From an uncultured Planctomycetia bacterium (lineage in GTDB: Bacteria; Omnitrophota; Gorgyraeia; Tantalellales; Tantalellaceae): 64,000 bases of DNA. Position numbers and translations under genes: made by a program. The DNA is taken from the NCBI GenBank assembly GCA_964572255.1, contig CAZNEE010000003.1:25258-89257 (forward strand), in the 5' to 3' direction. Of the stretch, positions 3,447 through 47,300 are shown piece after piece. The notes under the pieces are model-generated. The model saw only the letters and a list, made by a program, of their open reading frames with translations, had not been told where the DNA came from and made no database searches. The first letter of the stretch is position 1. Each line of letters begins with the position of its first letter.

Positions 3447-3541
3447 TGGTTTATTATAATATAGGATATGTAAGAGGTAAAGGATATATAAGAATATAAG
3501 CGACGGGAGATTTGCTTAAGGCGATTATATCTTTTTCCGTT

Positions 3542-4204
3542 CTAAAGTTTCCGGTGCTTGACTACCTTTGCCTGGACCATGTATATGACGTCTTCGGCTA
3601 TGTTTGTGGCATGATCGCATATTCTTTCAAGGTGTCTCGCGACCAAAAGAAGCGGCACTGCCCTTGTAGCAGTTGTTCCGTCTTTGACCATATAATCGTT
3701 GATAAGTTCTTCCTGTACGGCCTTTTTCAGCGCGTTGGCTCGCGGATCCATCAGAATTATCTCTTTTGCAAGTTTCTCATCCATATTCACGAACGCATCT
3801 ATAGCGCCTTTTATCATTTTTCTTGCCATTTCCGATAGTTTAGGAATATCTATCATCGGTTTAAGTAAAGGTTTGTCGGCTATTTCTACAGCACGCTGGG
3901 CTATATTGACAGCCAGGTCCGCCATTCTTTCAAGTTCGGCGTTTATCTTCATCCCGGTGGTTATGAACCTGAGGTCCACGGCCATCGGCTGTCTTAATGC
4001 CAATAGTTCTATAGCGTTTTCCTCTATGATGTTTTCCATCTCATCTATCCTGTTGTCTCCGTCAATGACTTCCCGGGCCAGGAGTTTATCTCTGTTCTTT
4101 ATGGCTTCCACGGATTTATAGATAGCCTCCTCTACAAGGGAGTCCATCTTCATGAGGTTCATCTTGAGTTTTGTCAGTTCCTCGTCGAAATGTCTTTCTG
4201 CCAT
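3542..4204 (-). CDS. phoU: Phosphate transport system regulator PhoU
   Basis: The 220-aa ORF has the duplicated PhoU repeat architecture (DLRFITTGMKINAELERMADLA ... ARHLERICDHATNIAE). It lies directly downstream of pstB. Confidence 0.9.
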   Translation of the reverse strand: MAERHFDEELTKLKMNLMKMDSLVEEAIYKSVEAIKNRDKLLAREVIDGDNRIDEMENIIEENAIELLALRQPMAVDLRFITTGMKINAELERMADLAVNIAQRAVEIADKPLLKPMIDIPKLSEMARKMIKGAIDAFVNMDEKLAKEIILMDPRANALKKAVQEELINDYMVKDGTTATRAVPLLLVARHLERICDHATNIAEDVIYMVQAKVVKHRKL

Positions 4205-12784: not shown

Positions 12785-12801
12785 TGGTGGAGGTGCCGGG
12801 A
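12785..12801. repeat. 17-bp direct repeat identical to tmRNA 3' end (candidate attR of ssrA-integrated islet)
   Basis: TGGTGGAGGTGCCGGGA at 12785-12801 is identical to 20237-20253, the reverse complement of the tmRNA T-arm/acceptor/CCA end. The orientation is that expected for an element integrated at the 3' end of ssrA. Confidence 0.55.
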
Positions 12802-12832
12802 CTATCGGATTTCGTGCTCAAATCGCCCTTTT

Positions 12833-12855
12833 CACCACGATTCCACCACGATTTG
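12833..12855. repeat. Tandem 11-bp direct repeat CACCACGATT x2 (copy A)
   Basis: TTCACCACGATTCCACCACGATTT. A near-identical tandem pair recurs at 20073-20096. Both lie just inside the islet's direct repeats. Confidence 0.6.
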
Positions 12856-12868
12856 TTCACTAATTTTG

Positions 12869-13351
12869 CTATTTTATCCTTGTCTTTGGTGGAATCTTGC
12901 CTTTTTTGAAATGCTTTTCCACCCAGCCGTTCTTAACACCGGTCCGGCTATCAAAATAGCCGATATAGGGCTTGATATCCAAAAGAGGCGTTCCGTCAAG
13001 GATGTCCACTTCAGAGAAAATGATTTCGGAACCTTTTACCTTTTTGAGTTTCACTATTGAGAACCCGATATGATTAGGACGATGCGGGCTTCTTATGGCG
13101 AATATCCCATGCACCACATCCTCAAGGAACGGTTTTCCAGAGAGCTTTTCTTCTTTCGATCGGTTAAAATAATATATCAGTATGACATGGGAAAACCTTT
13201 CGATATCCTTTAACCCCGCCTTATATTCCGGAAATATCCTGGCAGTACCGGTAACTCCCTTTTTAAACTTACCCTGAATAGGCATGCCCTTCGGTTCTTT
13301 ATACGGCGTATTGATGACACCTATGGGCTTGATCGTAATAGGTTTCTTCAT
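12869..13351 (-). CDS. TsaA/YaeB-like SAM-dependent tRNA methyltransferase family protein
   Basis: RSPHRPNHIGFSIVKL and GTPLLDIKPY match the TsaA (UPF0066) signature region, and the length fits at about 160 aa. Confidence 0.6.
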   Translation of the reverse strand: MKKPITIKPIGVINTPYKEPKGMPIQGKFKKGVTGTARIFPEYKAGLKDIERFSHVILIYYFNRSKEEKLSGKPFLEDVVHGIFAIRSPHRPNHIGFSIVKLKKVKGSEIIFSEVDILDGTPLLDIKPYIGYFDSRTGVKNGWVEKHFKKGKIPPKTRIK

Positions 13352-13368
13352 TTAAAACACTCATCTTC

Positions 13369-13701
13369 CTATTTATGCCGATATTTTATTACCCTGACCT
13401 TTTCAAGGGTGATCAGTCCTTCCAGCACAGTTTCATCCAAAAAAGGCAAGAGCTTGTTTAAATTCTCTTCGGTATCCACAAGCTCAATAACTATGGGAAG
13501 GTCCTCGGAAAGTCTGAGAATCTTGGCCGAATGCATACGGCTATCCGCGCCAAAACCCATCAGGCCCCTCAAAACTGTGGCTCCGGCCAAGTGAAGTTCT
13601 CTGGCTTTCAAAACGATCTGCTCATATAACGGCTTGCCCTCGTATTTATCAGATTCCCCTATGAATATCCTCAGCAATGTTCCTTCTTCAGGCAATTTCA
13701 T
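13369..13701 (-). CDS. DUF190 (PII-like) protein, CrcB-associated
   Basis: GATVLRGLMGFGADSRMH matches the DUF190 motif. The gene sits immediately downstream of crcB, as is common in fluoride-riboswitch regulons. Confidence 0.65.
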   Translation of the reverse strand: MKLPEEGTLLRIFIGESDKYEGKPLYEQIVLKARELHLAGATVLRGLMGFGADSRMHSAKILRLSEDLPIVIELVDTEENLNKLLPFLDETVLEGLITLEKVRVIKYRHK

Positions 13702-13715
13702 GATCAGTCCCTCCT

Positions 13716-14102
13716 TTAACGCGCTATGTTAAACAAAAAACGGCTTAAAAAATAACCGGCAAATACAAGCGCTATGCCAAGTATAAAGCTCGATACTATG
13801 TTCGCGAAGAAAAGGCTGTATTCACCGTCCCGGATCAAATGAAAGCTTTCAAGCGAAAACGTTGAGAATGTTGTGAAAGAACCGAGAATTCCGATAAAAA
13901 TCAAAATTCGCGTATTCTGGGAAACAATTACGGATTCAAACATTCCCCATAGAAAACCTATGAGAAACGACCCTGTCAGGTTGACACTCAATGTCCCCCA
14001 CGGAAAACTACTACCTCCGATCCTGTGTGCTAACCCTGAAGCCCAATACCGTAACAAAGCTCCCGAGGCACCCCCTACAGCAATATAAAAAAACCTCGAC
14101 AT
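13716..14102 (-). CDS. crcB: Fluoride ion channel CrcB/Fluc
   Basis: The 128-aa four-TM protein carries GTLSVNLTGSFLIGF and GILGSFTTFSTFS (Fluc signatures). Confidence 0.88.
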   Translation of the reverse strand: MSRFFYIAVGGASGALLRYWASGLAHRIGGSSFPWGTLSVNLTGSFLIGFLWGMFESVIVSQNTRILIFIGILGSFTTFSTFSLESFHLIRDGEYSLFFANIVSSFILGIALVFAGYFLSRFLFNIAR

Positions 14103-14126
14103 AAACAGATACCTCCTTTCGTTTAA

Positions 14127-14174
14127 GTAGGAGTTATCAGCCGGTTGAGGCGGTTAACGGCGAACCCCATCGCC
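14127..14174 (-). ncRNA. Fluoride riboswitch (crcB motif)
   Basis: Minus-strand sequence GGCGATGGGGTTCGCCGTTAACCGCCTCAACCGGCTGATAACTCCTAC matches the conserved crcB-motif core (GGCGAUGG..UUCGCC..AACCGCC..CUGAUxACUCCUAC) immediately 5' of crcB. Confidence 0.85.
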
Positions 14175-14181
14175 AATTCAA

Positions 14182-14502
14182 TCAAAACGTCACTACCTTC
14201 TCGGATTCTTTAACAATATCGTACATATCTTTCATTGTAGATATGGGACACAGATCAGAACCTTCCTGCTCTCTTGATTTGATACAGCTCCCACAGGCAT
14301 AGATCTTCCCGCCTGCCTGAATAAGCTTTTCCGCCTGCTCAATTGTGTTAAATTTATCCATACTGATCTGCTGATACTCAACGCCCTTGCCCATGAAAAA
14401 TACTTTTACATCATCTTTTTGTGCCAGAGCAAAGTTGGCGTACCTTAAAGCGTTCCAACAGGTTTCCGCGTCATTGCTCGCGATAACAATTCCTATTTTC
14501 AT
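14182..14502 (-). CDS. DsrE/DsrF-like (YchN-like) family protein
   Basis: The 106-aa ORF begins MKIGIVIASNDAETCWNALRYANFAL and contains a YACGSC cysteine motif, the pattern of DsrE-fold proteins. Confidence 0.5.
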   Translation of the reverse strand: MKIGIVIASNDAETCWNALRYANFALAQKDDVKVFFMGKGVEYQQISMDKFNTIEQAEKLIQAGGKIYACGSCIKSREQEGSDLCPISTMKDMYDIVKESEKVVTF

Positions 14503-14528
14503 GATAGCGTCTCCTTTAAGAGCCTGTT

Positions 14529-15050
14529 TTACAACTTAACAAGTAGGCCTAACATTATACCACCGATTACGGTGAAGATAGGGTTAATCCTGAAGACCGC
14601 TGTTAACACAATAACGATAACAGCGATAAGAGCGGCCCTTACGTCCGTAATTGAAGTTTTAAATAATTTTAAAATAGCTACCGTAATGAATCCTATAGCC
14701 ATGGGCCGCGCAACCCTCATTATCCTCTGGATCACGGCATATTCCTTGAACTTATCGTAGTGGATCGAAATTATATAAAGACAAAGAAAGGGTATCGCTA
14801 CAAGCCCTACTGTCGCGCATATAGCTCCCTTCAGTCCGGCTACCCTCGAACCGACGAACGTAGCAAGGTTTATCATGATAGGTCCGGGGGTGACCTCAGC
14901 TACCGATACGACATCCGTAAACTCTTCCATTGTCAGCCACCGGTAGTTTTCGACTATATATCGTTGGGCAAGAACCAGCATCGAGTACCCGCTGCCAACG
15001 GTAAAAAGGCCTACTTTTACGAATGTAATGAACAACTTAAGCAGGATCAT
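14529..15050 (-). CDS. chrA: Chromate transporter ChrA (short single-domain form)
   Basis: FVKVGLFTVGSGYSMLVLAQ ... EVTPGPIMINLATFVG matches the CHR-family motif region, and the 173 aa length fits a half-size ChrA. Confidence 0.7.
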   Translation of the reverse strand: MILLKLFITFVKVGLFTVGSGYSMLVLAQRYIVENYRWLTMEEFTDVVSVAEVTPGPIMINLATFVGSRVAGLKGAICATVGLVAIPFLCLYIISIHYDKFKEYAVIQRIMRVARPMAIGFITVAILKLFKTSITDVRAALIAVIVIVLTAVFRINPIFTVIGGIMLGLLVKL

Positions 15051-18000
15051 GCCCGTACTCCATGAAAAACCGTATAAACGCTCGGGATCACAAACAAAGT
15101 CAGGAACATTGAAACGGCCAGGCCTCCGACTACGGTTATCGCCAAAGGTCTAAGCATCTCAAGACCCTCCCCCCATCCCACGGCCAGAGGAAGAAGTCCG
15201 ATTATCGTGGTCAAACTTGTCATCAGGATAGGCCGGACTCTCAGTGACGCCCCTTCGATAACCGCTTCTTTTACGGAAAGCCGCCCTTCCTTCCTGAGAT
15301 TGTTAATATACTCTACAAGCACGATGGCGTTATTGACGACGATCCCGACCAAAAGGATAAGACCCAGGAAAACCGTGGCGCCAAAAGGAGTTCCTGTAAC
15401 GGCCAGGAATAAAAGCGACCCCATGACAGCTAAAGGGAGGGTGACCATTATGATAAGCGGATCTATTAAAGATTCATATTGCACCGCCATTACAACGAAC
15501 ACGAGGAATATCGCGATCAGTATTACCATCAAGAGCTGTAAGTTTGATTCTTTTGCCGCTTCCTCTTCTCCCCCGTACTCCAGAAAATATCCGTCAGGCA
15601 ACGATATATCTTTAAGCCGGTCTCTGACCGCATCGGTTACCTTGCCCACATTCATCCCGACGGCATCTCCCGTTACCTCAATAAGACGCACCTGGTCTTC
15701 TCTGTTTATCTCGACCGGGCCTTCAGATATCTTCACGCGCGCTACCTCTTTGAGCTTTACGGGAACTCCGCTTGGAGGATAGAGCGGGGTGTCTTCTATC
15801 GCTTCTTTCGTGCTTATAACAAAAGGATCCGCCATAACTCTGATATCATAATCGACATTCCGTTCTGTATCCGTAAACTGCGTATTCACAAGGCCATCCA
15901 CGGAAGCCCGCATAACATCAGTAACGTCTTTCGCGCTAAGACTGAAATCATTCAATCTTTCCCTGTCAAGGAATATGTGTATCTCCGGCCTCGAGAAATC
16001 TATCGAAATATCCAGGTTCCCCAACCCATGCACACCTGATATCCGCGACCTTATATCTTTAGCGAGGCCAAAAAGCCTGTCTAGATTGTGTCCTCGTATA
16101 CGTATGTCCACATCTGAAGTGGATGTTTTTTTAATTCCCCTTAAGGGGGTTTTCATGACTTTTATCCGGGCTCCCTTTACAGGATCGTCTTTTATCGATC
16201 TCTGGAGTTTTCTGATAAAATTATCGGTTGAGACAGGCCGTGCGGATTTTTTAACAAGCTCTATCGTTATGTCAGCTTCATTGGCCTTTTCGTATACATT
16301 CTTTCTCTGCCAATACCCTCCTACCATGGAATACACTTTCGCGACACCGGGCATACCATTGATCCTGTTTTCGAGTTCTTTTACGACCATATCGGTCTTT
16401 TCAACGGCCGAACCGACAGGAAGCTTCACCTTTACCGTGACCCTTCCGTCGTCTATCTGCGGCAGGAATTCCCGCCCGAGCTTTCCCGCCAGTATTATGC
16501 TGATCACAAACAATGCCGCTACAAGGCCACCTATGGCTACTCTATGCCCAAGAGCCCGGGTAAGGATCTTTCTGTATATAACTATGCTCTTGTCAATGAG
16601 CTTTTTAGTAAGATCGTTCTCAACGGAAGATCGTTTGAATTTAAACCAGTGCGCGGACAGGCAGGGCACAACAGTAAGGCTCACTATAAGTGAAATAACG
16701 AACGCCACCGAGATGGTCACGACCATATCCCTGAAAAGTAGTGACGCTATCCCCGAAATAAAAAAGAACGGTATTATCGCCGCCAGGTTCGTCAGAGTGG
16801 ACGCTGTTAACGCGCTGGTGACCTCTCCGCTGCCTATATGCGCGGCTTCTTCCATACAGGAAGCGTCTTTCTGATGCCGTGTTATGTTTTCAAGCATCAC
16901 TATGGAGTTATCGAGAAGCATGCCTACCGCGAGAACGAGCCCGCCGAGCGAGAATATGTTCAGCGTGACATCCGCCAGCCCCATCAGGATAAAAGTTCCC
17001 AGGATACTTACCGGCACGGCTATAGCTATTATGACAGTCCTCTTTAAATTATGAAGAAAAAACCAGATCATCAGCATGGCCAGAAACCCGCCTATTATGG
17101 CCGTAATACCCACATTTTTTATCGAGTTCTCTATGTAAACCGCCTGGCTTGACGCGACATCGCTTCTTACGTCTTCCGGTATTATCTTCTTTACGATAAG
17201 TTCCCTCGTGCGCTTGTTGATGTTTGATACTATCTCGACCGTATTAGCGTTGGGCTGTTTCAGGAAACTCAGCATAACACAGGGCTTTCCATTGAAACGG
17301 GTTAAGATCCTTTGCTCTTCATAGGCGTCGGCGACCCGGGCCACGTCTTTTATCTTTAAGAAACGTCCCTCACGATTAGCAATTATAATGTTCTCTATTT
17401 CAGCCACATCCTTGAACTTGGCAAGTATCCGAACACTGTATTCCTTTTCAGTATCCGTTATCCTTCCGGCGGGAAACTCCGTATTCTCCTGGCTTAAAAT
17501 ATCAAGTATCCTGCCGGTTGAAAGCTCGTACGACTCGACTTTCTGCCTGTCGAAAAGGATCTGTATCTCCCTGACCCTGCCGCCCGAAGTTACAACAGCT
17601 CCGAGTCCCGGTATGCCCAGATAATAATTGCTAAGATCGTTCTCAGCCCAGTCGCGAAGCTCCCTTTCGCCCTTTGTCCCAGAGGAAAGGGCGATTTCTA
17701 TTATGGGAAGCTGGGAAGGGTCCGCCTTGTATATTTTAGGTTCATCGGCGTCAGGAGGAAGATCGTTCCTCACAAGATCAAGCTTGGCCCGGGTATCGGC
17801 GAGCGCCGCATCCATGTCTTTCCCGTACTCGAAATAGACTTCTATCGAGGCGTTCCCTTCTATCGCGGAAGATATAACCTGTATGGCGTCTTCGGTCGTG
17901 GCTACGCTGGACTCCACCCTCTTTAGAATATTTTCCTCGATCTCTTCGGGGCTTGCGCCTTTCCAATCGATAACAATACGGACCAGTGGATAGGTTATCC

Positions 18001-18115
18001 TGGGAAGGAGGTCAACTGAAAGGCTTTGCAGAAAAAAAAGCCCAAGGACTACCACCATCAAGGTAAGCACAAAAACACCAACGGGCCTTTTTATGGAAAT
18101 ATCACTTAACGTCAT
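15047..18115 (-). CDS. RND family efflux transporter (AcrB/HAE-like)
   Basis: The 1022-aa ORF has a 12-TM topology with two large periplasmic loops, and contains MLLDNSIVMLENI and AITVVGGLAVSMFLTLFVIP, which are characteristic of RND pumps. Confidence 0.85.
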   Translation of the reverse strand: MTLSDISIKRPVGVFVLTLMVVVLGLFFLQSLSVDLLPRITYPLVRIVIDWKGASPEEIEENILKRVESSVATTEDAIQVISSAIEGNASIEVYFEYGKDMDAALADTRAKLDLVRNDLPPDADEPKIYKADPSQLPIIEIALSSGTKGERELRDWAENDLSNYYLGIPGLGAVVTSGGRVREIQILFDRQKVESYELSTGRILDILSQENTEFPAGRITDTEKEYSVRILAKFKDVAEIENIIIANREGRFLKIKDVARVADAYEEQRILTRFNGKPCVMLSFLKQPNANTVEIVSNINKRTRELIVKKIIPEDVRSDVASSQAVYIENSIKNVGITAIIGGFLAMLMIWFFLHNLKRTVIIAIAVPVSILGTFILMGLADVTLNIFSLGGLVLAVGMLLDNSIVMLENITRHQKDASCMEEAAHIGSGEVTSALTASTLTNLAAIIPFFFISGIASLLFRDMVVTISVAFVISLIVSLTVVPCLSAHWFKFKRSSVENDLTKKLIDKSIVIYRKILTRALGHRVAIGGLVAALFVISIILAGKLGREFLPQIDDGRVTVKVKLPVGSAVEKTDMVVKELENRINGMPGVAKVYSMVGGYWQRKNVYEKANEADITIELVKKSARPVSTDNFIRKLQRSIKDDPVKGARIKVMKTPLRGIKKTSTSDVDIRIRGHNLDRLFGLAKDIRSRISGVHGLGNLDISIDFSRPEIHIFLDRERLNDFSLSAKDVTDVMRASVDGLVNTQFTDTERNVDYDIRVMADPFVISTKEAIEDTPLYPPSGVPVKLKEVARVKISEGPVEINREDQVRLIEVTGDAVGMNVGKVTDAVRDRLKDISLPDGYFLEYGGEEEAAKESNLQLLMVILIAIFLVFVVMAVQYESLIDPLIIMVTLPLAVMGSLLFLAVTGTPFGATVFLGLILLVGIVVNNAIVLVEYINNLRKEGRLSVKEAVIEGASLRVRPILMTSLTTIIGLLPLAVGWGEGLEMLRPLAITVVGGLAVSMFLTLFVIPSVYTVFHGVRA

Positions 18116-19400
18116 ACCCTCTTCCTGATATTTTCTCTATCTCCGCCTTTGCGAGGCGCATCTCCAGAATAGACAACGCGTACCTGACCTGTGCGAGTGA
18201 AAACGCTTTTTGAGCGTCAAGAAGGTCAAGACTGGTAACAAGCGTATCCCTGTAACGCGCTTCGAATATGTTCAGGCTCTCACGAGCCTTCTCAAGGCTT
18301 TTACGTGCTATCTCGAAGCTTTTCCGTGCCGCCTCGCCCTTAAGGCGTGCCGCCTCTAGATCCAGATCAAGCTGTTGTTCCACAAGTTTCTCATACGAAT
18401 CAAGTTCTTCTTTGTAGGCCTTAGCCTCTCTTACCTCGGCCATGGTCTTACCCCAGTCCCATACATTGAGATCTACAGCTATCCCGGCCGCCCAGTCATT
18501 ATCCCCTCCGGGTAATCTTGCCCATTCGTATCCATACCTGTAATACGAGTTGACCTGGGGGAAAAACCCGCTTCTCGCGGATATTATCATCTCTTCGGCC
18601 GCTTTTTTATCCATGGATATTCTGCGAATCTCCGGATTTTCATACAAATTTACAGTCCCGCGATCATCAAGTACCGGCTCGTCTTTGATATCTTTTATCT
18701 CTATCTCGGCGTTAAGATCGAGACCCATCGCGTTGAGAAGGGTCTTTCTTGATATACCTAAACTCTCCCTCGCCGAGATTAATTCCTGTTCTACCTCGTT
18801 TACCTGGACCTCAAGCCGCAAAAGGGTCTCCTGTCTGGGGACTTTTGTCCGCCTGTTAAGATCGACAGCCGTGTCATATGACGACCTTGTGTATTCAAGA
18901 AGCTCTTCCTTGCTCAGCACTATATCCCGGGCGAAAAGCATCTTGTAATACGCCTCTTTCACGTTAAAGATAACATCTTCCCTGGCGGCAAGGTATCCCT
19001 GTTCCGCGGCGTCAACAGCGTATCTCGCCGACTTCTGTTCAGAAAATATCTTCCCTCCGGTAAACAGGGGCTGGGTAACCTCCATGTACGCCTGGAAATC
19101 GTCTTTTGAATCACCGAGATAACGTTTTTTCCCGGGAATTACATAAGACAATCTGTCATAACTGAAAGTAGCGTCGACCCGTGGAAGATTATCGGAAGTG
19201 ACAGCGCGCAGGTTCTCTTTTTTCTGGTCGGTCTTGTGGTCGTAAATCCCCAGCTTTGGATGCTTTTTAAGCGCTTCCGATATACACTCTTCCAGGGATA
19301 ACGTGTCCTGTTCAACGTAATTTTCCTGCGAATGCGAAATACCCGCGGCAAACAGGGCAAAACCGATCATTAAAAGACATATACTTGCTTTCTTATTCAT
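18102..19400 (-). CDS. Outer membrane efflux protein (TolC-like OMF)
   Basis: It has a signal peptide (start likely MNKKASICLLMIGFALFAAG at about 19400) and the repeated coiled-coil/beta pattern of the OEP family. It is adjacent to the RND pump. Confidence 0.7.
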   Translation of the reverse strand: MNKKASICLLMIGFALFAAGISHSQENYVEQDTLSLEECISEALKKHPKLGIYDHKTDQKKENLRAVTSDNLPRVDATFSYDRLSYVIPGKKRYLGDSKDDFQAYMEVTQPLFTGGKIFSEQKSARYAVDAAEQGYLAAREDVIFNVKEAYYKMLFARDIVLSKEELLEYTRSSYDTAVDLNRRTKVPRQETLLRLEVQVNEVEQELISARESLGISRKTLLNAMGLDLNAEIEIKDIKDEPVLDDRGTVNLYENPEIRRISMDKKAAEEMIISARSGFFPQVNSYYRYGYEWARLPGGDNDWAAGIAVDLNVWDWGKTMAEVREAKAYKEELDSYEKLVEQQLDLDLEAARLKGEAARKSFEIARKSLEKARESLNIFEARYRDTLVTSLDLLDAQKAFSLAQVRYALSILEMRLAKAEIEKISGRGYDVK

Positions 19401-19788
19401 GTTTGGCATGTTTATCATAAAACCTGAGAAACCTCCCAAGGGAATCACGGTTGGCTTTTATAACCCTCACCCAGTCCCGCAAAAACCTTTTCCCCGACGG
19501 AGTTATCTCATATATCCTTTTGGCCGCACCTTTCTGTCCGGTATCCCACTTTGACCTTACAAGACCTTCTTTTTCGAAGGCCCTGAGCGCCCGGTATACC
19601 GCTCCCGCGTCCGGGTCCCTTTTCAGGAAACCTTTTTTCTTTAAATCGTCCATCAGTTCATATCCATGTGACGGGCGGCATAGTAATAACGCCAGAAGAC
19701 AAGGCTGTATAAAACGGCGGGTTCTGCCCGAAGTGGCTCCGGAGACAGCTTTCAGGGTAAAGCGTGATACCTTTTCCTTCATGAACAT
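19393..19788 (-). CDS. PadR family transcriptional regulator
   Basis: LLALLLCRPSHGYELMDDLKK ... GAVYRALRAFEKEGLV is the PadR winged-helix signature. Confidence 0.8.
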   Translation of the reverse strand: MFMKEKVSRFTLKAVSGATSGRTRRFIQPCLLALLLCRPSHGYELMDDLKKKGFLKRDPDAGAVYRALRAFEKEGLVRSKWDTGQKGAAKRIYEITPSGKRFLRDWVRVIKANRDSLGRFLRFYDKHAKHE

Positions 19789-20072
19789 CTCCTCAATAAG
19801 TTCTGCATATATATGTTTTTAACATATATATTGAGAAAAGTCAACCATGTTCACTTTAATACTTGCTTACCCGGTATAAAGTTGTTTTTTCTGACATACA
19901 ATCACCCTCTTCTTTTTTCTTTAGTAACTGCCCATCATTATCTCAGACCTTATTTATTACGGATAGAAAGAATTAAATACCTTTGACCAAATTGTGACTA
20001 TAGAGAAGTGAATTTGAGTTGATAGGACAATAGCGATAGGAATTAACATCATGTTGTTCGTTTATAATAAAT

Positions 20073-20096
20073 TCCACCACGATTTCACCACGATTT
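20073..20096. repeat. Tandem 11-bp direct repeat CACCACGATTT x2 (copy B)
   Basis: TCCACCACGATTTCACCACGATTTT, in the same orientation as the copy at 12833-12855. It lies 140 bp inside the tmRNA-proximal repeat. Confidence 0.6.
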
Positions 20097-20189
20097 TTCT
20101 TAAAAATGACCATTTTACCACTGACTATAACTGACGGTGTCTGTACATATATTCTTATCTATGTGCCTGTGATTTAAGGCATTTACAGC

Positions 20190-20225
20190 AAAAAAGGCGA
20201 CTCTATATTCAGAATCGCCTTTATG
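20190..20225 (-). terminator. Rho-independent terminator 3' of tmRNA
   Basis: Minus-strand sense GCATAAAGGCGATTCTGAATATAGAGTCGCCTTTTTTGCTG: a GGCGA...TCGCC stem followed by T6. Confidence 0.65.
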
Positions 20226-20236
20226 CTAAAACAAGG

Positions 20237-20623
20237 TGGTGGAGGTGCCGGGATTCGAACCCGGGTCCATGAACTCGAACCTGACAGTATCTACATGCTT
20301 AGTCTACCTTTGATCTTTTTCCCGAAATGTCCGATAGGCGGGAAATTCCGGGAAGCAATCCCCTGATACTACCTGAGGTTAGGAGATATTACCCCAGGAG
20401 TCCTTGCGTAGCTTAAGTCCTATTAGTATCCCAAGGCACTTACTAATGGACCGGTTCCTGCAAATTGAGGAACACTTAACGCATCCTCAGCCAAAATAGC
20501 TTCGGCTTCGGCTACTGGATTGTATCCTGCGTTTATGTTTTTGCCAGGTTTTTAAAGAGGCCGCCTGACAACCTCTGCATGCTGCTCCCAAGTTAAAAGA
20601 ACATGTCGAGACCTTTCACCCCC
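20237..20623 (-). ncRNA. ssrA: tmRNA (ssrA)
   Basis: The reverse complement ends GGACCCGGGTTCGAATCCCGGCACCTCCACCA (T-arm, acceptor, CCA) and begins GGGGGTGAAAGGTCTCGAC. A 7-bp acceptor stem pairs the 5' GGGGGUG with the 3' CACCUCC. It sits immediately 3' of smpB. The tag reading frame was not resolved. Confidence 0.85.
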
Positions 20624-20624
20624 A

Positions 20625-21083
20625 TTATCTCTTGCGCTTGCGGTGGAGTTCTCGTTCTGTCTCTTTCTTGACTTGTTTTTCTTTTAGAGCCATTCTCTTA
20701 TCAAAGAGCTTTTTGCCTCTTGCTATGCCGACTTCCACTTTAGCGTATCCGCGCTTGAAATATATCTTTAAAGGAACTAACGTGAACCCTTTTTGGGACA
20801 GATTGGTTTCGATCTGTCTTATCTGCATCTTGTGCAAAAGAAGTTTTCTCGGCCTTAAAGGATCATACTCGTCACGTGAAAACTTATAAGGGCTTATGTG
20901 TAAATTATAAAGGAATAACTCGCCCGCTTCAATTCTCGCGAAACTTCCTTTTAAATTGGCTTTCCCGGCGCGTAATGATTTTACCTCAGAACCTATAAGC
21001 TTCAGCCCCGCCTCATAAGTCTTTTCAATATGATAATCCCTGAAAGCCTGGCGGTTTGTTACAACAACCCGTTCTTCTTGCAT
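20625..21083 (-). CDS. smpB: SsrA-binding protein SmpB
   Basis: FRDYHIEKTYEAGLKLIGSEVKSLR ... LLLHKMQI match SmpB family motifs, and the basic C-terminal tail is present. Confidence 0.9.
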   Translation of the reverse strand: MQEERVVVTNRQAFRDYHIEKTYEAGLKLIGSEVKSLRAGKANLKGSFARIEAGELFLYNLHISPYKFSRDEYDPLRPRKLLLHKMQIRQIETNLSQKGFTLVPLKIYFKRGYAKVEVGIARGKKLFDKRMALKEKQVKKETERELHRKRKR

Positions 21084-21148
21084 ATATTTCTACCTTTATT
21101 ATAACATAATCTTTTACTGTATTTCAACTTAGTCAAATTTGCAAATAA

Positions 21149-21227
21149 AGAGTACAGTATACTTCCTACCAGGGCCCCTCCGCCCGGTGTGGATCCTCCC
21201 TGTACGGAAGCATACTGTACTCTTAAA
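21149..21227. repeat. Extended imperfect inverted repeat (18-bp arms) embedding a 38-bp element that recurs at 35754-35791
   Basis: AAGAGTACAGTATACTTCC (21149-21167) pairs with GGAAGCATACTGTACTCTT (21206-21224). A GC-rich segment of about 38 nt lies between the arms. The region is upstream of smpB. Confidence 0.5.
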
Positions 21228-21294
21228 AAGCAAAATTTCCTATTAATTGACTCAGATAACACTTTATAGTATAATTCAGTTTGCCAAATGTCAA

Positions 21295-21381
21295 GCGGGC
21301 GTGGCGGAATTGGCAGACGCGTATGGTTCAGGTCCATATGGAGGAAACTCCTTGGGGGTTCAAGTCCCTTCGCCCGCACCA
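21295..21381 (+). tRNA. tRNA-Leu (anticodon CAG)
   Basis: The sequence folds by eye as a cloverleaf with acceptor GCGGGCG/CGCCCGC, D-arm TGGCGGAATTGGCAGACGCG, anticodon loop TTCAGGT, a long variable arm and T-arm GGGGGTTCAAGTCCC. CCA is encoded. Confidence 0.8.
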
Positions 21382-26819: not shown

Positions 26820-26842
26820 TTTTGCAAATTTTATATCACATA

Positions 26843-26878
26843 AAAAAAAGAGGCTGTTTAGAACAGCCTCTTTTTTTA
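26843..26878. terminator. Bidirectional rho-independent terminator between convergent genes
   Basis: AAAAAAAAGAGGCTGTTTAGAACAGCCTCTTTTTTTAT: a perfect 8-bp stem flanked by an A-run and a T-run. Confidence 0.8.
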
Positions 26879-26904
26879 TCCAAATATCATTTTTGAAAAA
26901 GGGA

Positions 26905-35638: not shown

Positions 35639-35753
35639 CCCACCTCGTTCGTTATATTTATAATATTAAGGAAAAGAACCTGAAAAAGGGTAGTCACATT
35701 TTACATAAATTTGACATTCCTGTCAAATAATTTACATTTGCTGAATTTTTATG

Positions 35754-35791
35754 TGGATCCTCCCTGTACGGAAACATACTGCACTCTTAAA
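35754..35791. repeat. Second copy of 38-bp conserved intergenic element
   Basis: TGGATCCTCCCTGTACGGAAACATACTGCACTCTTAAA matches 21190-21227 with 2 mismatches. It lies between the giant gene 1 stop and the ABC permease operon start. Confidence 0.55.
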
Positions 35792-35839: not shown

Positions 35840-38800
35840 TTATGCTGACAATAGAAGCTGTCTTCTAGTATGAAGCCTGTCTTCCTTAAAAGGCCTTATC
35901 GGCATATTAAGCATAACGTTCCTGATAAGGAATAAAAGGTGCCCAAAAGCCTGGGCCTTAAGTTCTTCAGGAAGAATTTTCATGGCTCCGCTCGAAATTT
36001 CCTTGCGCGGCAGCATAAAATATAATGCCTCTCTTTTCATGGATCTGCCTGTCAACTGCTCTATGAATTTCTGAAGATCATCGGCAGCATTGCCTTCGTC
36101 TTTCTTGCTGATGTCTTCAGGCGTCACCGCCGCCAATAATATTGCCGTTCCCTCCACTTCTCTGGTGAAGTACCATCCTTTACCCTCGAGATCTTTCTCC
36201 TGATCGATATCCGGTATGACCAGTATTCTTATGTTGCCCTCCTCAAGCATCTCTCTGACTTCCGGATTTGTGCTGTTAACCGCATCCTGGATGTTGGCTT
36301 TAGTGCCTACCAGAACATTTATCTCGTCATCTTTCAGATCCATTTCAGCTACCTTATCAAGCCCTAACTTTGCCTGATAAGTCCTGATGGTAATGTTAGG
36401 ATTAACATTTTCTCTTAACTGCTGCTGCTCCCATTTATGCGAGCCCACATCATTTGAATCATCTCCCGGCGCGAACATCTCAACAGGCTGGATCAAGTTT
36501 ATTGTCTTGCCGGCCGTGACCGAGACATGTTTTCTGAGATTTTCATACGATGTATATACTATATTCTCATCTCTTGTTTTTTCATACATCACTTTAACTA
36601 CGGCACGTTCCGTTCCGGTTTCAGGCTTTATTATATAATCCTGATCCTGCGGTATATTATACTTACCTATAGCCACCGGCTCTATGGGTGTGCCTTCCGG
36701 CGTCTCTACTTTTATCTTACCTTTTTGAACAATCAGACTGTGAGCTCTCGCGGCTAAAATCTCCGGCCTCCCAACAGGTTTTATGATATCGAGTCTGTCA
36801 AAAGTATCGCCGTTCTTCAAAAACACTATTTTTTCCAGCCATTCAAATTCATCTACTGCAGGCACCTCGGGCCCTTTAGCCATAGGTTTCGGGAATTCAC
36901 GCTCTTCCAGCTGCGGCGTGAAAACATCGACGATCTTTGTTCCCGCCTCGGCTATGATCTTATAACCACCGGCGCTCGCAGGCACGAACAACATGCCTTT
37001 CCCTGGAACGGCGCGCGGTATATGATAAGCTGTGCCATCTACTCCTGCCACGCTGGCTTCGCCGCCCTCAATGAGCCAAAATCTATGCAGGCTGGCAATA
37101 TCGGAAACTTCTATTACGCCTGATCCGGTAAAAGTTATTACATGCGCTTCCAAACCCTTGCTTTCAAAATTGCCCGGCATGCGTTCGATCTTGTATGTAT
37201 CAGTAGCCTCGATAACTTCCATGGACGTTATCTTGCCGACCACCGGTATAGATTCATGGATCCTGTCAAGATCAAGACCTTTTTTAGCTTCGGGATACCA
37301 TGAACGATACCTTAATCTGTCAAAATCATCAGTTGATTGAGTCGTGCCGGGGATCTGCGGCTCTACGACCGTGACTCCCGGACCAAGAGCATGCAGCATC
37401 CCGGCTTTTACGGGAATAACATCGCCCGGTTTCACTTCAACATAGTTGTAAAATTTTTCCATCTCATTCCGTAAAACTTCTATAGTTTTTATATGCACAC
37501 CGAGATGTTCGTTTTTAGGCGAAGAGGCTCTTGCCATTCTGGCGACAGGAAGGACCCTGCCGACTTTCTCAAGCTGTTTTTCATATCCCAAGTGTACGAG
37601 AACTTCGTAAAGATCTTTTAATTTACTATCGTACGCATTTGCTATGTTCTGATAAGCCTCGCTGACGCCGATCTTTTGGCCTTCGTGTTCCTCTATTGCT
37701 TCTTCGCTGAAACCGAATATGATCCTGGCTCCCTCTTCCGCTTCCGTAACAAGCCAGGATTCATTCTTTGTTTCGTGGAACTGGACTGAAAGCCATTCCT
37801 GCGGTGTAAGGAGTTTTACCAGCGGCATTTCAGCGCCATAATCCATTACGGGTTTTTCGCCAAGTGCTTCTTTTGGAACTTGAGCAATAACACCGAACAT
37901 GGGAGCTGCCTCATCCTCTATTTTCAACAAAGCGGTCTTAGGTGCCATGAAACCGTCCCAATATTCTCCTATTTTGACGCTGACTATCTGATCTTCTCTT
38001 CCCCATTCCTTGGCTTCCCTGTAAGGTTCGCTGTAAACCGGTTTACCTTCTTTAAGCGCAGTAGCTATAAGGCCTTCAGGCGTGTTTTCATCAATTGTCC
38101 TTGCGGCCCAAACGCCGGGTGATTGTGTTTGAGGCGGCGCATCTTTTTTAAGCGCCTTATCGACCATCTTTTGTACGATCGCGACTCTCTTAGCAAGCAT
38201 TTCCGTACAGCGATCCGATGTTTTTGCGCCTACATAAAATCTGAAAATGGGTTCATTGCCCGAAGGACGCAAATGAACAACATCGTCATTGGCGAATGTC
38301 ATCCTTATTCCGTCAATAAGGTTCAACATCACGATCTCATCTTCAAATCCCATTTCGCTTGTGAAATAACCTTTAATGTTCTTTCTGATCTCCAAAAGCT
38401 CATCGAGCTCATCATCTGTAAGTTTATATTCAGCCTCATCTTTATCTATCGCAGTAACGCCTTTTTCGTCATCAAACTTTACCTCACCTATTTTACTTTT
38501 CTTATCTTTCGGAGAAAACATCGCCACTATCGCTTTCCCGACATCAGGAGTATATTCCGGTATTTCCCCTTTTTCAATAATATTGCCGCTCTTATCTTTT
38601 TTGTCGCCTGAAACTTTGCTTGCGTCAGTTTGATAAGAAGCAAGCCTTGAGGCTATGAGTTCTGAAGCTTTCTGGCCCTCAGCGATCTGTCCTATAGCAA
38701 GAAGAAGCGGAAGCGCGGCATCCCGTGATGGGATCGGAAGCAGTTCTTTATTGCCTCCGGGGATCTTGAAATTGGTTGCCGTGAGAAAACCTCCGTTCGA

Positions 38801-41800
38801 TTCCCAGCTGATAACTTTTGCTTTCTTCTTGTCTTTATCGGAAAGCGGAACACGATAATCATTCATGGCTTTAATGACATACGGCGAACCGATCTTTGTT
38901 CTTTTCACTTTTATTTTTTTACCTTTAGCGGATTTCATGTTTTTAAGATCTTTAACCATCTCCGGATTAGCGCTTGTGGCTATCGCTATAAAGTCCGGTT
39001 TTAGAAACTGTGCGGCTAAAGCGCCGAGTTTATCGCCCGGCAGGAAATTCCCGTTCTCATCCGCGAAAAGAGGCCTGTCAGAATCACCGTCTGTTGAAAT
39101 AATAACATCCGGGCTATACTCCTCTGCAAACTGTTTAAGAAGATCCCTTGTTTCGTCCGAAAGCTTTTCCGTATCAACAGGAATAAATTTATCATCACTT
39201 CTTTCAACAGGTATAATCTCAGCACCTAAAGCCGCCAATATTTTCTCTAATATATCCCTGCCGACGGCTGAATGCTGGTAAAGCACTATTCTTTTGCCTT
39301 TCAAGAAATCTGCCGGGAATGAATCAATATAACGCTGTATATAAGCTTCTCTTGCCTTCTCATTCACGGATTTAAACTCGGCAGGAGCCATCTTAAATAT
39401 GCCGTCTCCGCTGAACTGGAGTTCATCCCAGTCTTTAGCGTATATTTTCTTTCTTATATTTTTAACATTCGCAAGAATGCCCGCCTCGTCGTCTTTTAAA
39501 ACCTCGCCGTTTGGTTTGACGAACTTGATCCCGTTCCTATCATCGGGAATATGGCTTCCTGTTACCATGATACTCGCGCGTCCGTTCTGCATCCCCCAGT
39601 AAGTAATTGCAGGCGTCGGCAGTTCGCCGCAATAATCGACCGCGCAACCCGCCTCTTCTATAGCTTTAGCGACCGCTTTAAGGATCCTGCCGGTACTTGA
39701 ACGGCGGTCTCCGGCGATGGAAATGGTATCGCCGCGTTTTATATCCTCAGAATTTATAAGATACTCGATGTAACCGCGTGTGTTGATATAACACTCCATG
39801 TCGGTCATATTAACGACTTCATCCCTCAACCCGCTTGTCCCGAAGGTGAGTGTTTTAAATTTTTCCATTTTTTCATCAATTCTTGCGATCTCCCCCAGCG
39901 CTTCCTGACGTCTCCTTTCGAGTTCTTCCATGCTTACGCCCGCCATGACCTCATGCGTTTCTTTGAATGACAATTCATTGTTATATATAGGTACATTGTA
40001 AGTGTTATTTTTATCTCTCAGATTGGTGTCTTCGGAAACCATCATACCGACAGGCCCATTATCTGTCAAGACAGTTCCATGCCTCATTTTTTCATCAAGC
40101 GCGAGATCATCCAGCTTGCTGCCCAACGATTTATAGATACCACTATGCTGGTTTAGAACAGTTTTTCCTGTTCTGGAACTGGATACAGCAAAAGAATCCG
40201 TTATCTCCACATCCCCAAGCGTGGAGTCCTTAATTACACTTCCGTTTACTTTGCCCGCACCCGTGATCTTGCTGTTTATGATAACGGAATTTCTGACCTT
40301 AACATCTTCGCTTATCTCTGAATTAATTATGATATTGCCGTTTGCATCCCTTACTCCGGAAATACCTTCGATCTTACGCGCAACAATGCCGTCCGGACCG
40401 TCGTCATTTATAGCCAGATATTTTTCTCTCATGGCTTCATGCTGACCTATATCGGGCCAGTAAACATTATCCCCGAGATCGAATATTTTTAGACTTAACT
40501 CTCTGCCGTATTTTTCTTTGAATATTTCTTTTACTCTTTGCACTTTTTCAAAGAACCAGGGAACCATCTTAACAAGTTCCTCTAGTTTTCCGTCAGCTTC
40601 AACAGCCTTGCCCCACTTATCAGTATCATTATCCATCGCAAGCGCCATCAAAAAATAAGGATCAAAATCAAAATATACTCCATCCTTTTTTATCTCTTTA
40701 TCAAAAACCTCTGAAGCGATGTCAAGCACATCATATGACACGGCTACAGGCCCAAGACTTATGCCGACTCTATCCGAATCAATGCCAAGCTCCTGCATTT
40801 TAGCTTTCAGGTCTTCGCGCAAAGCCTCAGCTCCATTCGGATTACGAGCCACCTGCGCCAGCATGTTGCCTTGCTCGTCAAAAATAACCCAATCCTTTTG
40901 CTTCGCTTTTTCATCGGAGATCTCATCAAGTTCCATTACCGAAACAACTTTCATCACGTCTCTTTCGGCCAGCGATTCGCCTTCTTCCGGGGCCGCAAAA
41001 AGATCGACCGAAGCGACCTGGGTTTCATCTCCCCATTTATCAAGTATGCCCCTGAATCCTCTTGCCTCAAGATATTTAGCCACAGGACCAAAATACAAAA
41101 GCGCTTCCTCAATGGCTGATATGGACTCTTTGGATCCATCAATATCCATGCTTGCCGCGGTGGAAGCGATAGCCGGTTTACGCACAGCCTCTACATCCGT
41201 AAAAGGCGACATCCTCTCGCCCTGGCCGAAAAGCATGCCTATTAAAGTCACATAATCCCTATAATTGATCTTAGCTTTTTTAGCCGCTTTTTTAATGTAG
41301 TCATAAGCGAGCAGTGTGCCTAAAAAGTTCCCCTCTCTTGTCTTTTTTTCTATTTTTCCTTTTTTTGTCTTTGTTTCTATTTGTTCCTTCAACGCGAGCA
41401 TCAAAGTGCTGTTATCGCTGTTAAACAGGCTTTTGGCCGTCTGGTCAAACCTTTCCTGCCAATCTTTTTGGTCACGTTCCATGGAAACAACAGCGACGAT
41501 CTTCACATTATCGTTCGCTTTAATGGCTTTATGAGTGTTGTCTATATTTTGAAGATTTGTCCTAAGCCCGGAATTTTCAGCTATTAATCTCTCTTCGTCC
41601 AACTTCGTCCTTTCTTCAGCTTCTTTTTTCCTTTTTTCGCCTATCTTTCGGCGTATGTCCATGATATTGACTTTCTCACGGACTTCCTTCTCTGTCATCC
41701 CATATACTATATGATAAATTTCGTGTAATGCCAAGCGCTGAATTTCATCCTCTGTCAGAATTTCGAAATCTTCGGCATCCATGTACATGTTAGGGGTCAA

Positions 41801-44341: not shown

Positions 44342-47300
44342 TTACATACTTATTAATGCAGCTTCATAGCTCATTCTTTCCGCTTCAAGTTCTTCATCAA
44401 TAGCTATCGGCTTTATTCGGAAAATATAATAGCCTAATATATCCTTTTCCAGGACGGCATTCTTGTTCATGAATTCCGGAATTTTGTTATCATTTACCAT
44501 TAGTGAAATGATCACGTTGTAAAGCTGGGATTCCAGGCCTTTTTCCATCTTGACAAAAAGCATCTTGTCCTCGTTCAAAAGGTGCATACCTTTTTCGTCA
44601 TTCTGTAGCATAAGATCCCTTGTGTCGCCTATCGCTATATCTTTTGCTTCGGCCCCGTATTTTTCATTTATAAGGGTATAGATCTTGCTCACGCTGTCTG
44701 AGTCCCTGAACGAAATATCATCTTTTGATATAACATCATCCACTCCGGCCAGCTTGAGAATCCCGTCAATATTATCTTTCGTAATATCTTCACCTTCCAG
44801 TCTTTCGCGCAGTTCCCCTGCTATTCTTATATGGAGTTTTACGGGATATTCGCCTTTGCCGAGTTTCCTGTAATCATCGATCGCTTTTCTATGCTCGTTG
44901 GCAAGCCAGCGAAGCCCGTTAATATCTTTAACTCTGAATGTAGCTATCTTTGTGCCCTCAAGCTTTGATAGTTTTGCTTGAAGGTTCTCTGCGTCTTTTG
45001 CCTGAAGCCTGTTCATCTCGGCGATCCTGTCAAATTTATACTCATATACCTTTAAGTCCGAGGACCTTAAAGACCTTAATACCGCAAAGCGGTTTGATAT
45101 GATATCCAAGACTTGCTGAATTTCGCCCATGCTTTTTCCGCTAAGTGAGGTCATTTCCGGACTTCTATTAAATTCGCTTATAAATTTTGCCTTATCTTTC
45201 TCTTCAATATCCGTTATAAATTCATGTAATACTTCCTGGAAATCTCCTTCCGCGCCCTGGATCAAACCGGCGGTATACGCACCGTACTCCCTCCTGAATG
45301 CTTCTAATTTTTCCAGATTTTCTTCCTCGCTGCCTGCGCTTAAAGCCACGCCTTTTATGCCTCCTATATTGCTTTTGAGCATTTCTTCATCTATTCTCTC
45401 CTGCGAAACTCCGATAACTCCGATAACTATGCCGATCGATTCTTTCTGATGAATATAGTCATTTATTTCTTTAGGCAATTCATCGTATTTTGGACAATGG
45501 ATGCCATTAGCTATAAGGCCTATTTTTTCATGAGCTACAAGAGCTTTTCCGAGATTATAAAGTCCTTCCATCTCTGCACCGCGCTGAAGGGCTAACTTTA
45601 TGAAATCTCCTCTTAACGTGCCCGGAGCCGCTTCGAAAGCCTTGGTCGCGCCTACGACAACCCTTTTGAAGATGTCCTGGAAGGGGATGGATTCAAGCTT
45701 TTCATCATCAGGATATTCCGAATCGGCGCCAAAATCTCTAACAAGCTGTCTGCGGGATACACGCGACCTAAGAATCACCATCTCAACGCCGCGGTTAAGG
45801 CATTCTATCGAGTATTTCAGCAGCCTTACTGATTCAAGATCAGGATGTTCTTTATCCACCTTCATGAACCACGTGTAGAACTTTTCTCCGTTTCCTGTTT
45901 CAAGGGCTTCTCTTGCGTCTTTTACATCAATACCCTCTTTTTCGATATCATTAACGGAATATTCAAGTCCGCTGCCCGCGCCCCAACGTTTCAACACTTC
46001 ATCCATTCCTATAGGGCCGATCTTCTTTCCTACGCGCCCTACGTCAAAACCTTTTTCTTCCAAGTATCGTACGATACGCAGGCGAAGTTCTTCCGGTATC
46101 CCCATCTTGAACAGCATGACCGCATGATTTTCTTCTCCTGGATCTTCCTCAAGGCCTTCCCGCAAGGTTTTGTTCAAGATCTCCGCTTTGTCCTGGTCTG
46201 TGGAATATATCTCTTTTTTTAATCTCTCGAGAACATCTTTTTCAGTTACGGTTTCACCGTCGATAACACTGCCGTATGAAGATATGATCTCCCTCAGAGC
46301 TTCTTTTTTCTTCTTAAAAAGATCCACGGTTTCAGATCTCGAAAATGAATCCACAAAAAGAAGATAAATATCCGCGAACAGATCATCCGAAAGTTCTATC
46401 CCTTCCGGGAATTCAATTTCCCTTCTCACCTCAAAAAACAAAAAATCCTCAAAATCGCTTACGCTCAAAAGGACTTTTTCCGCATTTAAGAACGACGGCT
46501 GTATCTCGTTGGTTTCCTCTAGGATCATATCGTTATAGAACTTCTCGCGGTCATTCTCAGACATGCTGCGTGTTATTCTGTTCGTGCGAAGACGGCGCAT
46601 CAATTTTACTTTTCTCATTTGAGACCTGGTCCACACGGCAACTAGACTATCGAACAGTTTCTCTCGTTCCCCTTCAAGAAACGCTTCATTACTGCCGAAA
46701 AGGCGTCCGGTGATAATATAGACATCTTTCTTGTTCGGTATGATCTTCTCGACGAAATCACCTGTAATGAAAGTCCCGTTCTTTCTCTCCGTAATATCAA
46801 CATACAGGTTTTTCCTGTCAAATTTTCTGTCACTGTACTTTTCAATATCTTTTATTCTTTGGACCACTTGTTCCTTGAGGGCTTTATCTTTTACAAGCCA
46901 ATTGCCTTCCTCATCAAATAGCTGCTGCAGGAGCAGGGTCTCTTTGACCCTTATGACCCGCGCTCCGTTTTTCTTAAGATCGTCAACCAATTTCCTTATA
47001 GCCTCGGTAAGCTCTTTCTCTTTCACCTTGCCTGACCCGTCTAAATACGCGTTCGATCCTATAGTGTCTATAATGCGGATCCTCTTGCTCTCTTCCGGAA
47101 CGTAAAAAGGCATGAAAAGCTCGTCATGACCGCCGCGGCCATTTCTTAGGTTGTGTATGAAGCTCCTGAATCCAAGAGTTCCTTTGAAGCCGAATTTCCC
47201 GGAAATCCCCAAAGGCGTCTCTCTTCGCGAGTGATCCAACAGCCATCCCGATTCCATGGAAATGCGGTTGACTTTAACACTGTCCCCCATTTTTTCCTTC

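Follow-up and report, generated by a model that had tools for sequence, protein, structure and literature searches.

What is a short sequence doing in two intergenic places of one bacterial contig, once as half of a large hairpin upstream of smpB and once ahead of an ABC-permease operon? A preliminary description of this DNA had offered four answers, namely a small RNA, a transcription attenuator, a shared promoter or operator, and a miniature repeat element. We evaluated these answers across the window, by which we mean the whole stretch of 64,000 nucleotides analysed here, and across the many further copies that were found in other metagenome contigs and assemblies.

The two copies and their surroundings

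The recurrence itself was confirmed, as the 38-mer at 21190-21227 is found again at 35754-35791 with 2 mismatches (none of 100 shuffles gave a match), and both copies are indeed intergenic and on the same strand. The repeat common to the two is slightly longer, at 40 nt (21188-21227 and 35752-35791), with 38/40 positions (95%) identical. Copy 1 had been described as the right half of a hairpin with 18-nt arms; the hairpin stands, while its arms are 19 nt each and their coordinates move by 1-3 nt. The left arm, AAGAGTACAGTATACTTCC, lies at 21148-21166 and the right arm, GGAAGCATACTGTACTCTT, at 21206-21224, with 39 nt in between, and the single A.C mismatch of this inverted repeat on the plus strand is a G.U pair on the minus strand. 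RNA folding of the region, a check that the preliminary description had proposed, gave -48.8 kcal/mol for the minus strand and -42.6 for the plus strand, far more stable than shuffled sequences (z ~ -7.8; 0/200 equally stable). The 77-nt core hairpin at 21148..21224 scored 85 bits against the family covariance model R1, and it is tentatively placed on the minus strand because mismatches that are compatible with wobble pairing are in excess there across the family. Read on that strand, it folds into a 19-bp stem (P1), a 3x3 internal loop (GUA/GUA), a 5-bp helix (P2, CAGGG/CCCUG) and an apical domain. The 29-nt apex, GGGCCCCTCCGCCCGGTGTGGATCCTCCC, occupies 21172..21200, is nearly invariant across the family, and is listed without a strand. 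Short outer arms (TTTGC...GCAAA) extend the hairpin to an approximate inserted unit of ~ 99 nt at 21137..21235, corresponding to the ~ 100 nt that are missing from a close relative, and the inverted repeat can be followed as far as 21130-21242 at 76% complementarity.

Copy 2, on the minus strand at 35752..35791, consists of the 5' arm and half of the apex (TTTAAGAGTGCAGTATGTTTCCGTACAGGGAGGATCCACA). In the alignment, its minus strand ends directly after GGATCCACA, inside the apical loop. The partner arm is absent and copy 2 has no significant fold of its own, yet it is 97.5-100% identical to copies in L007 and L008, stretches of other metagenome DNA. Judged by its sequence, it is a copy of the element that was broken at the hairpin tip. 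A search of the whole 64,000-nt window with the R1 model and its filters off found no third copy.

Copy 1 sits in a compact divergent region, with the tmRNA gene ssrA (20237-20623) and smpB (20625-21083) on the minus strand to one side and tRNA-Leu(CAG) (21295-21381) on the plus strand to the other. Homologues of this SmpB assign the organism to Ca. Omnitrophota. Its hairpin lies between the -35 boxes of two promoter-like sites, each scoring 11/12, one for smpB on the minus strand (TTGAAA at 21127, TATAAT ending at 21098) and one for tRNA-Leu on the plus strand (TTGACT at 21247, TATAAT ending at 21275). The centre of the hairpin is ~ 60 nt from each box. On the window's minus strand, the hairpin is followed by UUUAUUU, and a terminator scan found no terminator-like site at this locus. 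Copy 2 lies 49 nt past the stop of the 2762-aa ORF at 35840-44128 and 26 nt upstream of the -35-like TTGACA at 35726, which belongs to the promoter-like site of the permease operon (TTGACA-17-TAAAAT, 35726-35698, minus strand). The distance from the shared arm to the -35 box is therefore 19 nt at the first locus (tRNA-Leu) and 44-65 nt at the second (permease). The interval between the copies holds a ydjC-GT2-PMT-M48 block and a mannan-utilisation operon (two GH113 genes, CBM proteins, ROK, a solute-binding protein and two permeases), and no integrase or other mobility gene was seen in it.

Several other features of this DNA are recorded here in their own right. A further minus-strand promoter-like site, TTGACA-17-TACTAT at 21294-21266, lies back to back over the tRNA-Leu promoter; both of its hexamers are retained in the relatives L129, L127 and L123, and an smpB transcript started from there, further upstream, could run through the inserted hairpin. 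The 3' end of the tmRNA gene carries an integrated 7.4-kb island (12802-20236), which is bounded by the 17-nt direct repeat TGGTGGAGGTGCCGGGA (12785-12801 and 20237-20253), and contig L001, otherwise 99.9-100% identical, is exactly without it. The island carries genes for TrmO-like, DUF190, CrcB and DsrE-like proteins, two chromate transporters, an RND pump, an outer-membrane factor and PadR, and no integrase was seen among them. Its crcB gene (13716-14102) is preceded by a fluoride riboswitch (14121-14183, minus strand, 59 bits), and there is a further direct repeat (ATTCCACCACGATTT..., 82%) immediately within each island end, at 12840-12867 and 20071-20098. An A/T-rich inverted repeat with 39-nt arms and a GC core (AACAGCCTC/GAGGCTGTT) at 26820-26900 has T-runs on both sides and convergent genes around it, and looks like a bidirectional terminator. 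The ORF next to copy 2 is the first of three consecutive giant minus-strand ORFs, followed by those at 44342-55555 (3737 aa) and 55878-63977 (2699 aa), the last of which contains internal repeats of ~ 297 nt at 57207-58319 and again near 58992. In L123, the 3' part of tRNA-Leu and its terminator are duplicated ~ 220 nt apart (3530-3620 and 3750-3840 of that contig), which suggests another element integrated at tRNA-Leu.

The family beyond the window

A pattern built over the window's three arms located full hairpins in 3 further stretches, from two other large metagenome contigs, namely L007 (which holds a second copy nearby), L008 and L009. These are 93-97% identical to copy 1 over 77 nt, and their flanks are unrelated. 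Since the loop was identical in all of them, species-representative genomes were scanned with its 20-nt core, CCCTCCGCCCGGTGTGGATC, which was found in at least 113 stretches; one match, in a coding region of a Bacillota genome of 73% GC, looks like chance, and the others belong to 34 assemblies. Many of these copies are related by descent, so the copy counts given here are not independent of each other. Among the matches listed, the host assemblies are mostly Ca. Omnitrophota, which are uncultured, very small and possibly host-dependent bacteria, with a minority placed by record label only in Planctomycetia, Deltaproteobacteria, Bdellovibrionota or plain "bacterium". The JBDRFA01 MAG has at least 39 exact-core copies in the loci fetched.

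Copies are intergenic and occur in either orientation. The unit measures ~ 80-235 bp (median ~ 104) and the hairpin spans a median of 86 nt, such that the family resembles MITEs in consisting of short (< ~ 300 bp), non-coding sequences with many dispersed copies. The GC content of the core-bearing assemblies ranges from 36% to 68%, and that of the arms tracks the host weakly (r = 0.45). The family is abundant enough to break assemblies: several copies stand at contig ends, and assembly L006 breaks inside the loop, as is expected of repeats. The element also offers a ready marker for strain typing and for following insertion events. Viral, phage and plasmid collections gave no match to it. In Rfam 15, no family matched the element at its gathering threshold when the whole window was scanned, and none did so at E-values up to 10 at the two loci or at four others, apart from chance-level resemblances to microRNA hairpins (~ 21-23 bits against thresholds of 62-98). 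We found no description of such an element in the literature on Omnitrophota or through a sequence-string search, nor any account of repeats in these bacteria.

Between subfamilies, the flanking stems of 15-30 bp are totally different and yet pair with themselves, while the apex is the same in nearly every copy. Three types of stem were seen. That of the window has a 3x3 internal loop (CCTACC...TGTACGG), a second is longer and contains an additional asymmetric loop (GCGGGTCCTGCC.../...GTCACCCGC), and a third, simple one occurs in MAGs labelled Deltaproteobacteria and Bdellovibrionota. The repeated GTACAG/CTGTAC hexamer, which had been offered as a sign of a promoter or operator, proved to be a stem feature of the window's subfamily that is not conserved across the family. 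In the alignment of 107 distinct copies from 34 assemblies (A2), 24 columns were invariant and 6 more were conserved in at least 90%, part of which is selection bias, as the central 20-mer of the apex served as the search pattern. The R1 model, run over 791 kb, gave 116 hits, nine of them without the exact 20-mer and differing from it by 1-3 nt. Of 21 copies whose detection did not depend on the pattern, 12 had the exact sequence and 9 differed by 1-3 nt; the tip is therefore strongly, not absolutely, conserved. It is as though something in these cells reads the 29-nt tip with great fidelity.

Covariation was counted on a three-helix model (P1, P2 and P3) over the 107 distinct copies. Both partners vary in each of the 15 P1 pairs and in the 2 outer pairs of P2, and most of these positions show every one of the four Watson-Crick types. 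Paired cells made up 88.6% of the total, against 63.9% in shuffles, and the covariation score of 0.567 (0.141 in shuffles) was reached by 0/500 of them; with the partner shifted by 1-3 columns, it fell to 0.10-0.15. In the core-selected copies, no variation was seen in the inner GGG/CCC of P2, in the apical helix UCCGC/GUGGA or in any loop, and since the core is the search pattern, its invariance says nothing on whether P3 forms. The covariation of the stems could also stem from intrastrand template-switch correction of palindromes instead of selection.

The two strands of the hairpin are not equivalent. We grouped the copies into 25 arm-families, of which 22 were informative, and mismatches that are compatible with G.U pairing were commoner on the G-rich strand, the window's minus strand (18 arm-families vs 4, p = 0.004). 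The minus orientation also folds more stably in 82 of 121 copies, and the 3x3 internal loop, taken on the G-rich strand, is GUA/GUA or UGA/GAA, i.e. tandem G.A pairs. Taken together, these observations make it seem that one strand matters as a single-stranded hairpin. The wobble pair of the apical helix UCCGC/GUGGA falls on the other, C-rich strand, so the strand evidence is not uniform. With respect to co-directional flanking genes, the element's orientation is even (25 vs 23), which, along with the position of copy 1 between divergent promoters, argues against a role in neighbouring mRNAs. The orientation data fit a single-stranded DNA intermediate or a self-contained transcript better. Across the family, the gene contexts were 48 co-directional, 14 divergent and 8 convergent, all of these counts resting on rough gene calls.

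One resemblance of the tip was not borne out. A possible mimicry of the 3' end of 16S rRNA (CGGTGTGGAT--CCTCC against CGGT-TGGATCACCTCC) turned out to be an ordinary match when the whole E. coli rrn operon was considered, as 137/500 shuffles did as well. Against the 40-nt tail alone, 11/2000 shuffles reach the score, which, coming from a post hoc test, is a lead only.

Insertion, mobility and the competing explanations

The suggestion of a miniature repeat element is the one that gained support, from the many dispersed copies elsewhere, from an empty site in a close relative and from truncated copies. The 685-nt contig L129, whose SmpB is 96% identical to that of the window and whose flanks are ~ 95% identical, is without the ~ 100 nt that hold the entire hairpin and has 12 unrelated nt instead; the orthologous site is thus filled in the window and empty in L129, a presence/absence polymorphism of the kind that MITEs display. 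Three further relatives (L123, L125 and L127; SmpB 68-74% identical) are also without the hairpin, and they retain the promoter boxes and the window's gene order (M48-PMT-GT2-ydjC-tRNALeu/smpB). Within one genome, units of 100-235 nt recur with 90-95% identity in unrelated flanks. Subfamily A of JBDRFA01, for example, is a 235-nt unit that has the ends TAATAC...GTATTA and is in most cases flanked by TA at either side. At the window locus and in the JBFZAV01 copies, a clean target-site duplication could not be made out. Broken copies were observed in the window (copy 2) and in L024, L106, L082 and L094.

At the orthologous site upstream of smpB in L127 (3925-3945), CAGTGCAGTATTGCCAGGAC shows a 17-nt match to the element's arm and the start of its loop, which may be what is left of an earlier insertion in this position or a chance match. 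Tandem copies 70-430 nt apart were also frequent (L041 2809/2916, L055 3382/3478, L094 4348/4393, L096 1347/1476 and L018 5460/5891/6100), with a truncated copy sometimes abutting a full one. Complementary locus-specific flanks show a small excess (7.98 vs 7.48 +/- 0.12; 8 copies where ~ 2 were expected) and occur in ~ 8% of copies, and, together with the tandems, this hints at insertion into or beside existing hairpins. Neighbouring copies were in the same orientation in 19 cases and in opposite orientations in 11 (p = 0.2).

Two simpler origins of the hairpins were rejected. Stems are not, as a general rule, derived from the target, given that whole units recur with identical stems. An assembly artefact in the form of an unremoved hairpin adapter is excluded because the stems end after 20-40 bp and the flanks enter different genes, and likewise by the conserved internal loops within the stems and by the presence of the same insertion in six independent assemblies.

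A gene that might move the element was not found beside it. Among the 25 commonest of the 221 Pfam families in the 150 nearest ORFs, there was no transposase, integrase or reverse transcriptase, and clustering of the 1057 ORFs within 2.5 kb yielded housekeeping families only, with no transposase. No gene keeps recurring beside the element, the largest neighbour cluster being a histidine kinase at 7 loci. In the low-copy assemblies L036, L046 and L097, where a "master" gene might stand next to the hairpin, only mfd, ligA, a thioesterase and purS/purQ were observed, and the 791 kb of DNA around the copies showed neither a Y1 nor a RAYT gene.

The reading that we consider probable is that of a non-autonomous palindromic repeat family, mobilised in trans, which resides in the intergenic DNA of Ca. 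Omnitrophota and of a few MAGs labelled as other phyla. Of the window's two copies, the intact one would have been inserted between the divergent promoters of smpB-ssrA and tRNA-Leu, and the other would have decayed. The element would act through its G-rich strand, which is the minus strand of the window, folded as a single-stranded hairpin; the tip would be the site read by a factor that is presumably encoded elsewhere in the genome, and that factor would copy or move the element. At the smpB locus, the element is most likely without a dedicated regulatory role, and any influence on the expression of smpB or tRNA-Leu is most likely a by-product of the insertion. Because the tip is nearly fixed, the stem varies from copy to copy and the element is scattered, it is not a regulator of smpB, and in annotation the hairpin upstream of smpB should not carry a regulatory-element label.

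The strongest competitor is a structured RNA family, either a small RNA or a cis-acting mRNA element whose dispersal would be secondary, possibly with its invariant purine-rich loop (GGA and GGAGG on the G-rich strand) bound by a conserved protein or by the ribosome; we judge it unlikely. The strong covariation of the stem would suit it, as would an apex kept in hosts of 36-68% GC, the one strand that G.U-compatible mismatches and tandem G.A loops favour, and that strand's more stable fold, and the promoter-like site at 21294-21266 could transcribe copy 1 from the minus strand. However, an RNA acting on its neighbours sits uneasily with an unbiased orientation to co-directional genes and with the position of copy 1 between two divergent promoters; an Rfam match is absent at any threshold, the element comes and goes between close relatives while broken copies persist, and its sole apical helix has the wobble pair on the C-rich strand. 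A structured-RNA role and mobility could coexist. Of the related suggestions in the preliminary description, nothing was found to favour a small RNA, as neither a match in Rfam nor a preferred orientation towards neighbouring genes was seen, and a transcription attenuator is at odds with a copy 1 that lies between two divergent promoter-like sites instead of in a leader and with a family that has no U-tract. That the hairpins are intrinsic, possibly bidirectional, terminators or stabilisers of mRNA 3' ends is improbable. They are very stable and intergenic, some stand exactly between convergent genes (L046) or just past a stop codon (copy 2 of the window, L064), and the window's hairpin does precede UUUAUUU on the minus strand. 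Yet a run of 5 or more T within the 9 nt beyond the stem, counting either strand, was present in only 11 of 117 copies. Convergent genes are the least frequent context, scanning the locus for terminators gave nothing, and an invariant 29-nt loop plays no part in intrinsic termination. We therefore rejected an intrinsic terminator, in which a G+C-rich hairpin runs directly into a U-tract, as the family shows no such tract.

The shared promoter or operator fared worse. As an operator or upstream promoter element, the repeat would co-regulate smpB-ssrA (or tRNA-Leu) and the ABC-permease/mannan operon, and it is true that both copies lie in the same orientation upstream of strong sigma-70-like promoters of minus-strand genes, with copy 1 centred at about equal distance from the two divergent -35 boxes. 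All four relatives (L129, L123, L125 and L127) keep these promoters, and the gene order upstream of smpB, without the element; its spacing to the -35 boxes is unequal, copy 2 is a mere fragment, and across 34 assemblies the element adjoins unrelated housekeeping genes. The empty site in L129 led us to reject this reading, which we hold to be very improbable. Least credible of all is that the two direct repeats are the attL and attR of a 14.5-kb integrated island. Same-orientation direct repeats beside tRNA-Leu and ssrA, both classical integration hot spots, with a genuine ssrA island adjoining, invite the comparison. It is contradicted by the lack of an integrase or mobility gene among the ydjC, GT2, PMT and M48 peptidase genes and the mannan-utilisation operon of the interval, and by the synteny of the ydjC-GT2-PMT-M48 block in relatives that have no repeat; moreover, the repeat is not part of the tRNA gene and identical sequence occurs at many unrelated loci. 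Repeats that bound an integrase-bearing segment absent from relatives were, in short, not what we found here.

Within the favoured reading of a repeat family mobilised in trans, the constancy of the tip calls for comment. A fixed tip in hosts of such divergent GC content, combined with arms that track host GC weakly, suggests long residence under strong selection, and a host-level function may therefore exist. Such a tip is unusual for a purely selfish repeat and would fit a host function too. As a more tentative proposal, the 29-nt tip could serve as cis-site to an undescribed system that is conserved across Ca. Omnitrophota and also present in some MAGs that bear the labels of other phyla. 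That system might consist of an enzyme that is specific for hairpins and uses a single-stranded intermediate to copy or move the element or, alternatively, of a conserved RNA- or DNA-binding protein for which the hairpins would be dispersed binding sites. If this is true, "tip fixed, stem free" would be the mark of a new class among bacterial repeats or non-coding RNAs, one that goes beyond the MITE, and finding the tip's reader could reveal a new mobilisation mechanism or nucleic-acid-binding system.

Comparison with known repeat families

Ordinary MITEs are conserved at their terminal repeats, to which the transposase binds, and not at their centre. In the present family, conserved terminal inverted repeats of the sort shared with an autonomous insertion sequence were not seen, as the ends differ between subfamilies and the centre is common. 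Because conservation in MITEs lies at the ends, the fixed tip is left unexplained by a standard cut-and-paste transposase. The Correia elements of Neisseria (CREE/NEMIS) are non-coding, non-autonomous, long imperfect palindromes of ~ 100-155 bp that are dispersed between genes and may point either way. Strains differ in the copies that they carry, insertion duplicates a TA, and transcripts of the elements form hairpins. The JBDRFA01 subfamily A, with TA mostly on both sides, is like them. Correia elements, however, conserve their terminal inverted repeats and are confined to one genus, whereas here the ends differ and only the central 29 nt are common to 34 assemblies. ERIC (IRU) sequences are intergenic imperfect palindromes of ~ 127 bp that are unexpectedly well conserved across genera, and to our knowledge they have no known transposase. 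ERIC is conserved over its full length, in contrast to the variable stems and fixed tip observed here.

The closest model for how the element may work is offered by the REP/REPIN sequences, served by RAYT (HUH Y1), whose gene typically has REPs on its flanks, and by the PATEs derived from IS200/IS605, in which hairpins are read as single-stranded DNA of one strand by an enzyme encoded elsewhere and no classical target duplication is made. The strand asymmetry would fit this model. In sequence, the conservation is reversed: REP elements are genome-specific, with a stem and a 5' GTAG that are both conserved, and in REPINs it is the loop or spacer that is conserved least, such that membership of the element in the REP/REPIN/RAYT class is not supported. 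A tip-fixed, stem-free pattern like that of the element is found in the origin hairpins of HUH Rep proteins and relaxases, where the loop is fixed because the enzyme reads or nicks it and the stem need only pair. Such origins occur once per replicon beside rep, in contrast to the dozens of chromosomal copies seen here with no rep gene nearby. The parallels with HUH origins and with REP/RAYT and IS200/IS605 would thus be analogies of mechanism, not of membership. Integron attC sites have R''/R' core sites (RYYYAAC...GTTRRRY) and a variable apex, and stand in arrays beside intI; the element ends in AAGAGT...ACTCTT without GTTRRRY, its apex is conserved, and its copies are dispersed with no integrase nearby.

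Pneumococcal BOX, RUP, SPRITE and other stem-loop sequence families, which have papers of their own (PMC3049150, PMC2267715), are small interspersed intergenic stem-loop repeats. They are species- or genus-specific families, and their sequences are unrelated to that of the element. We know of no description of BOX, RUP or SPRITE as tip-invariant, and a conservation pattern with a fixed tip and a free stem appears to be undescribed. The broad kind to which the element would belong, that of small dispersed palindromic repeats such as Correia, ERIC, REP and BOX/RUP, is a known one. What looks new is that the tip is conserved rather than the ends, and the conservation of that tip across many divergent genomes also sets the family apart.
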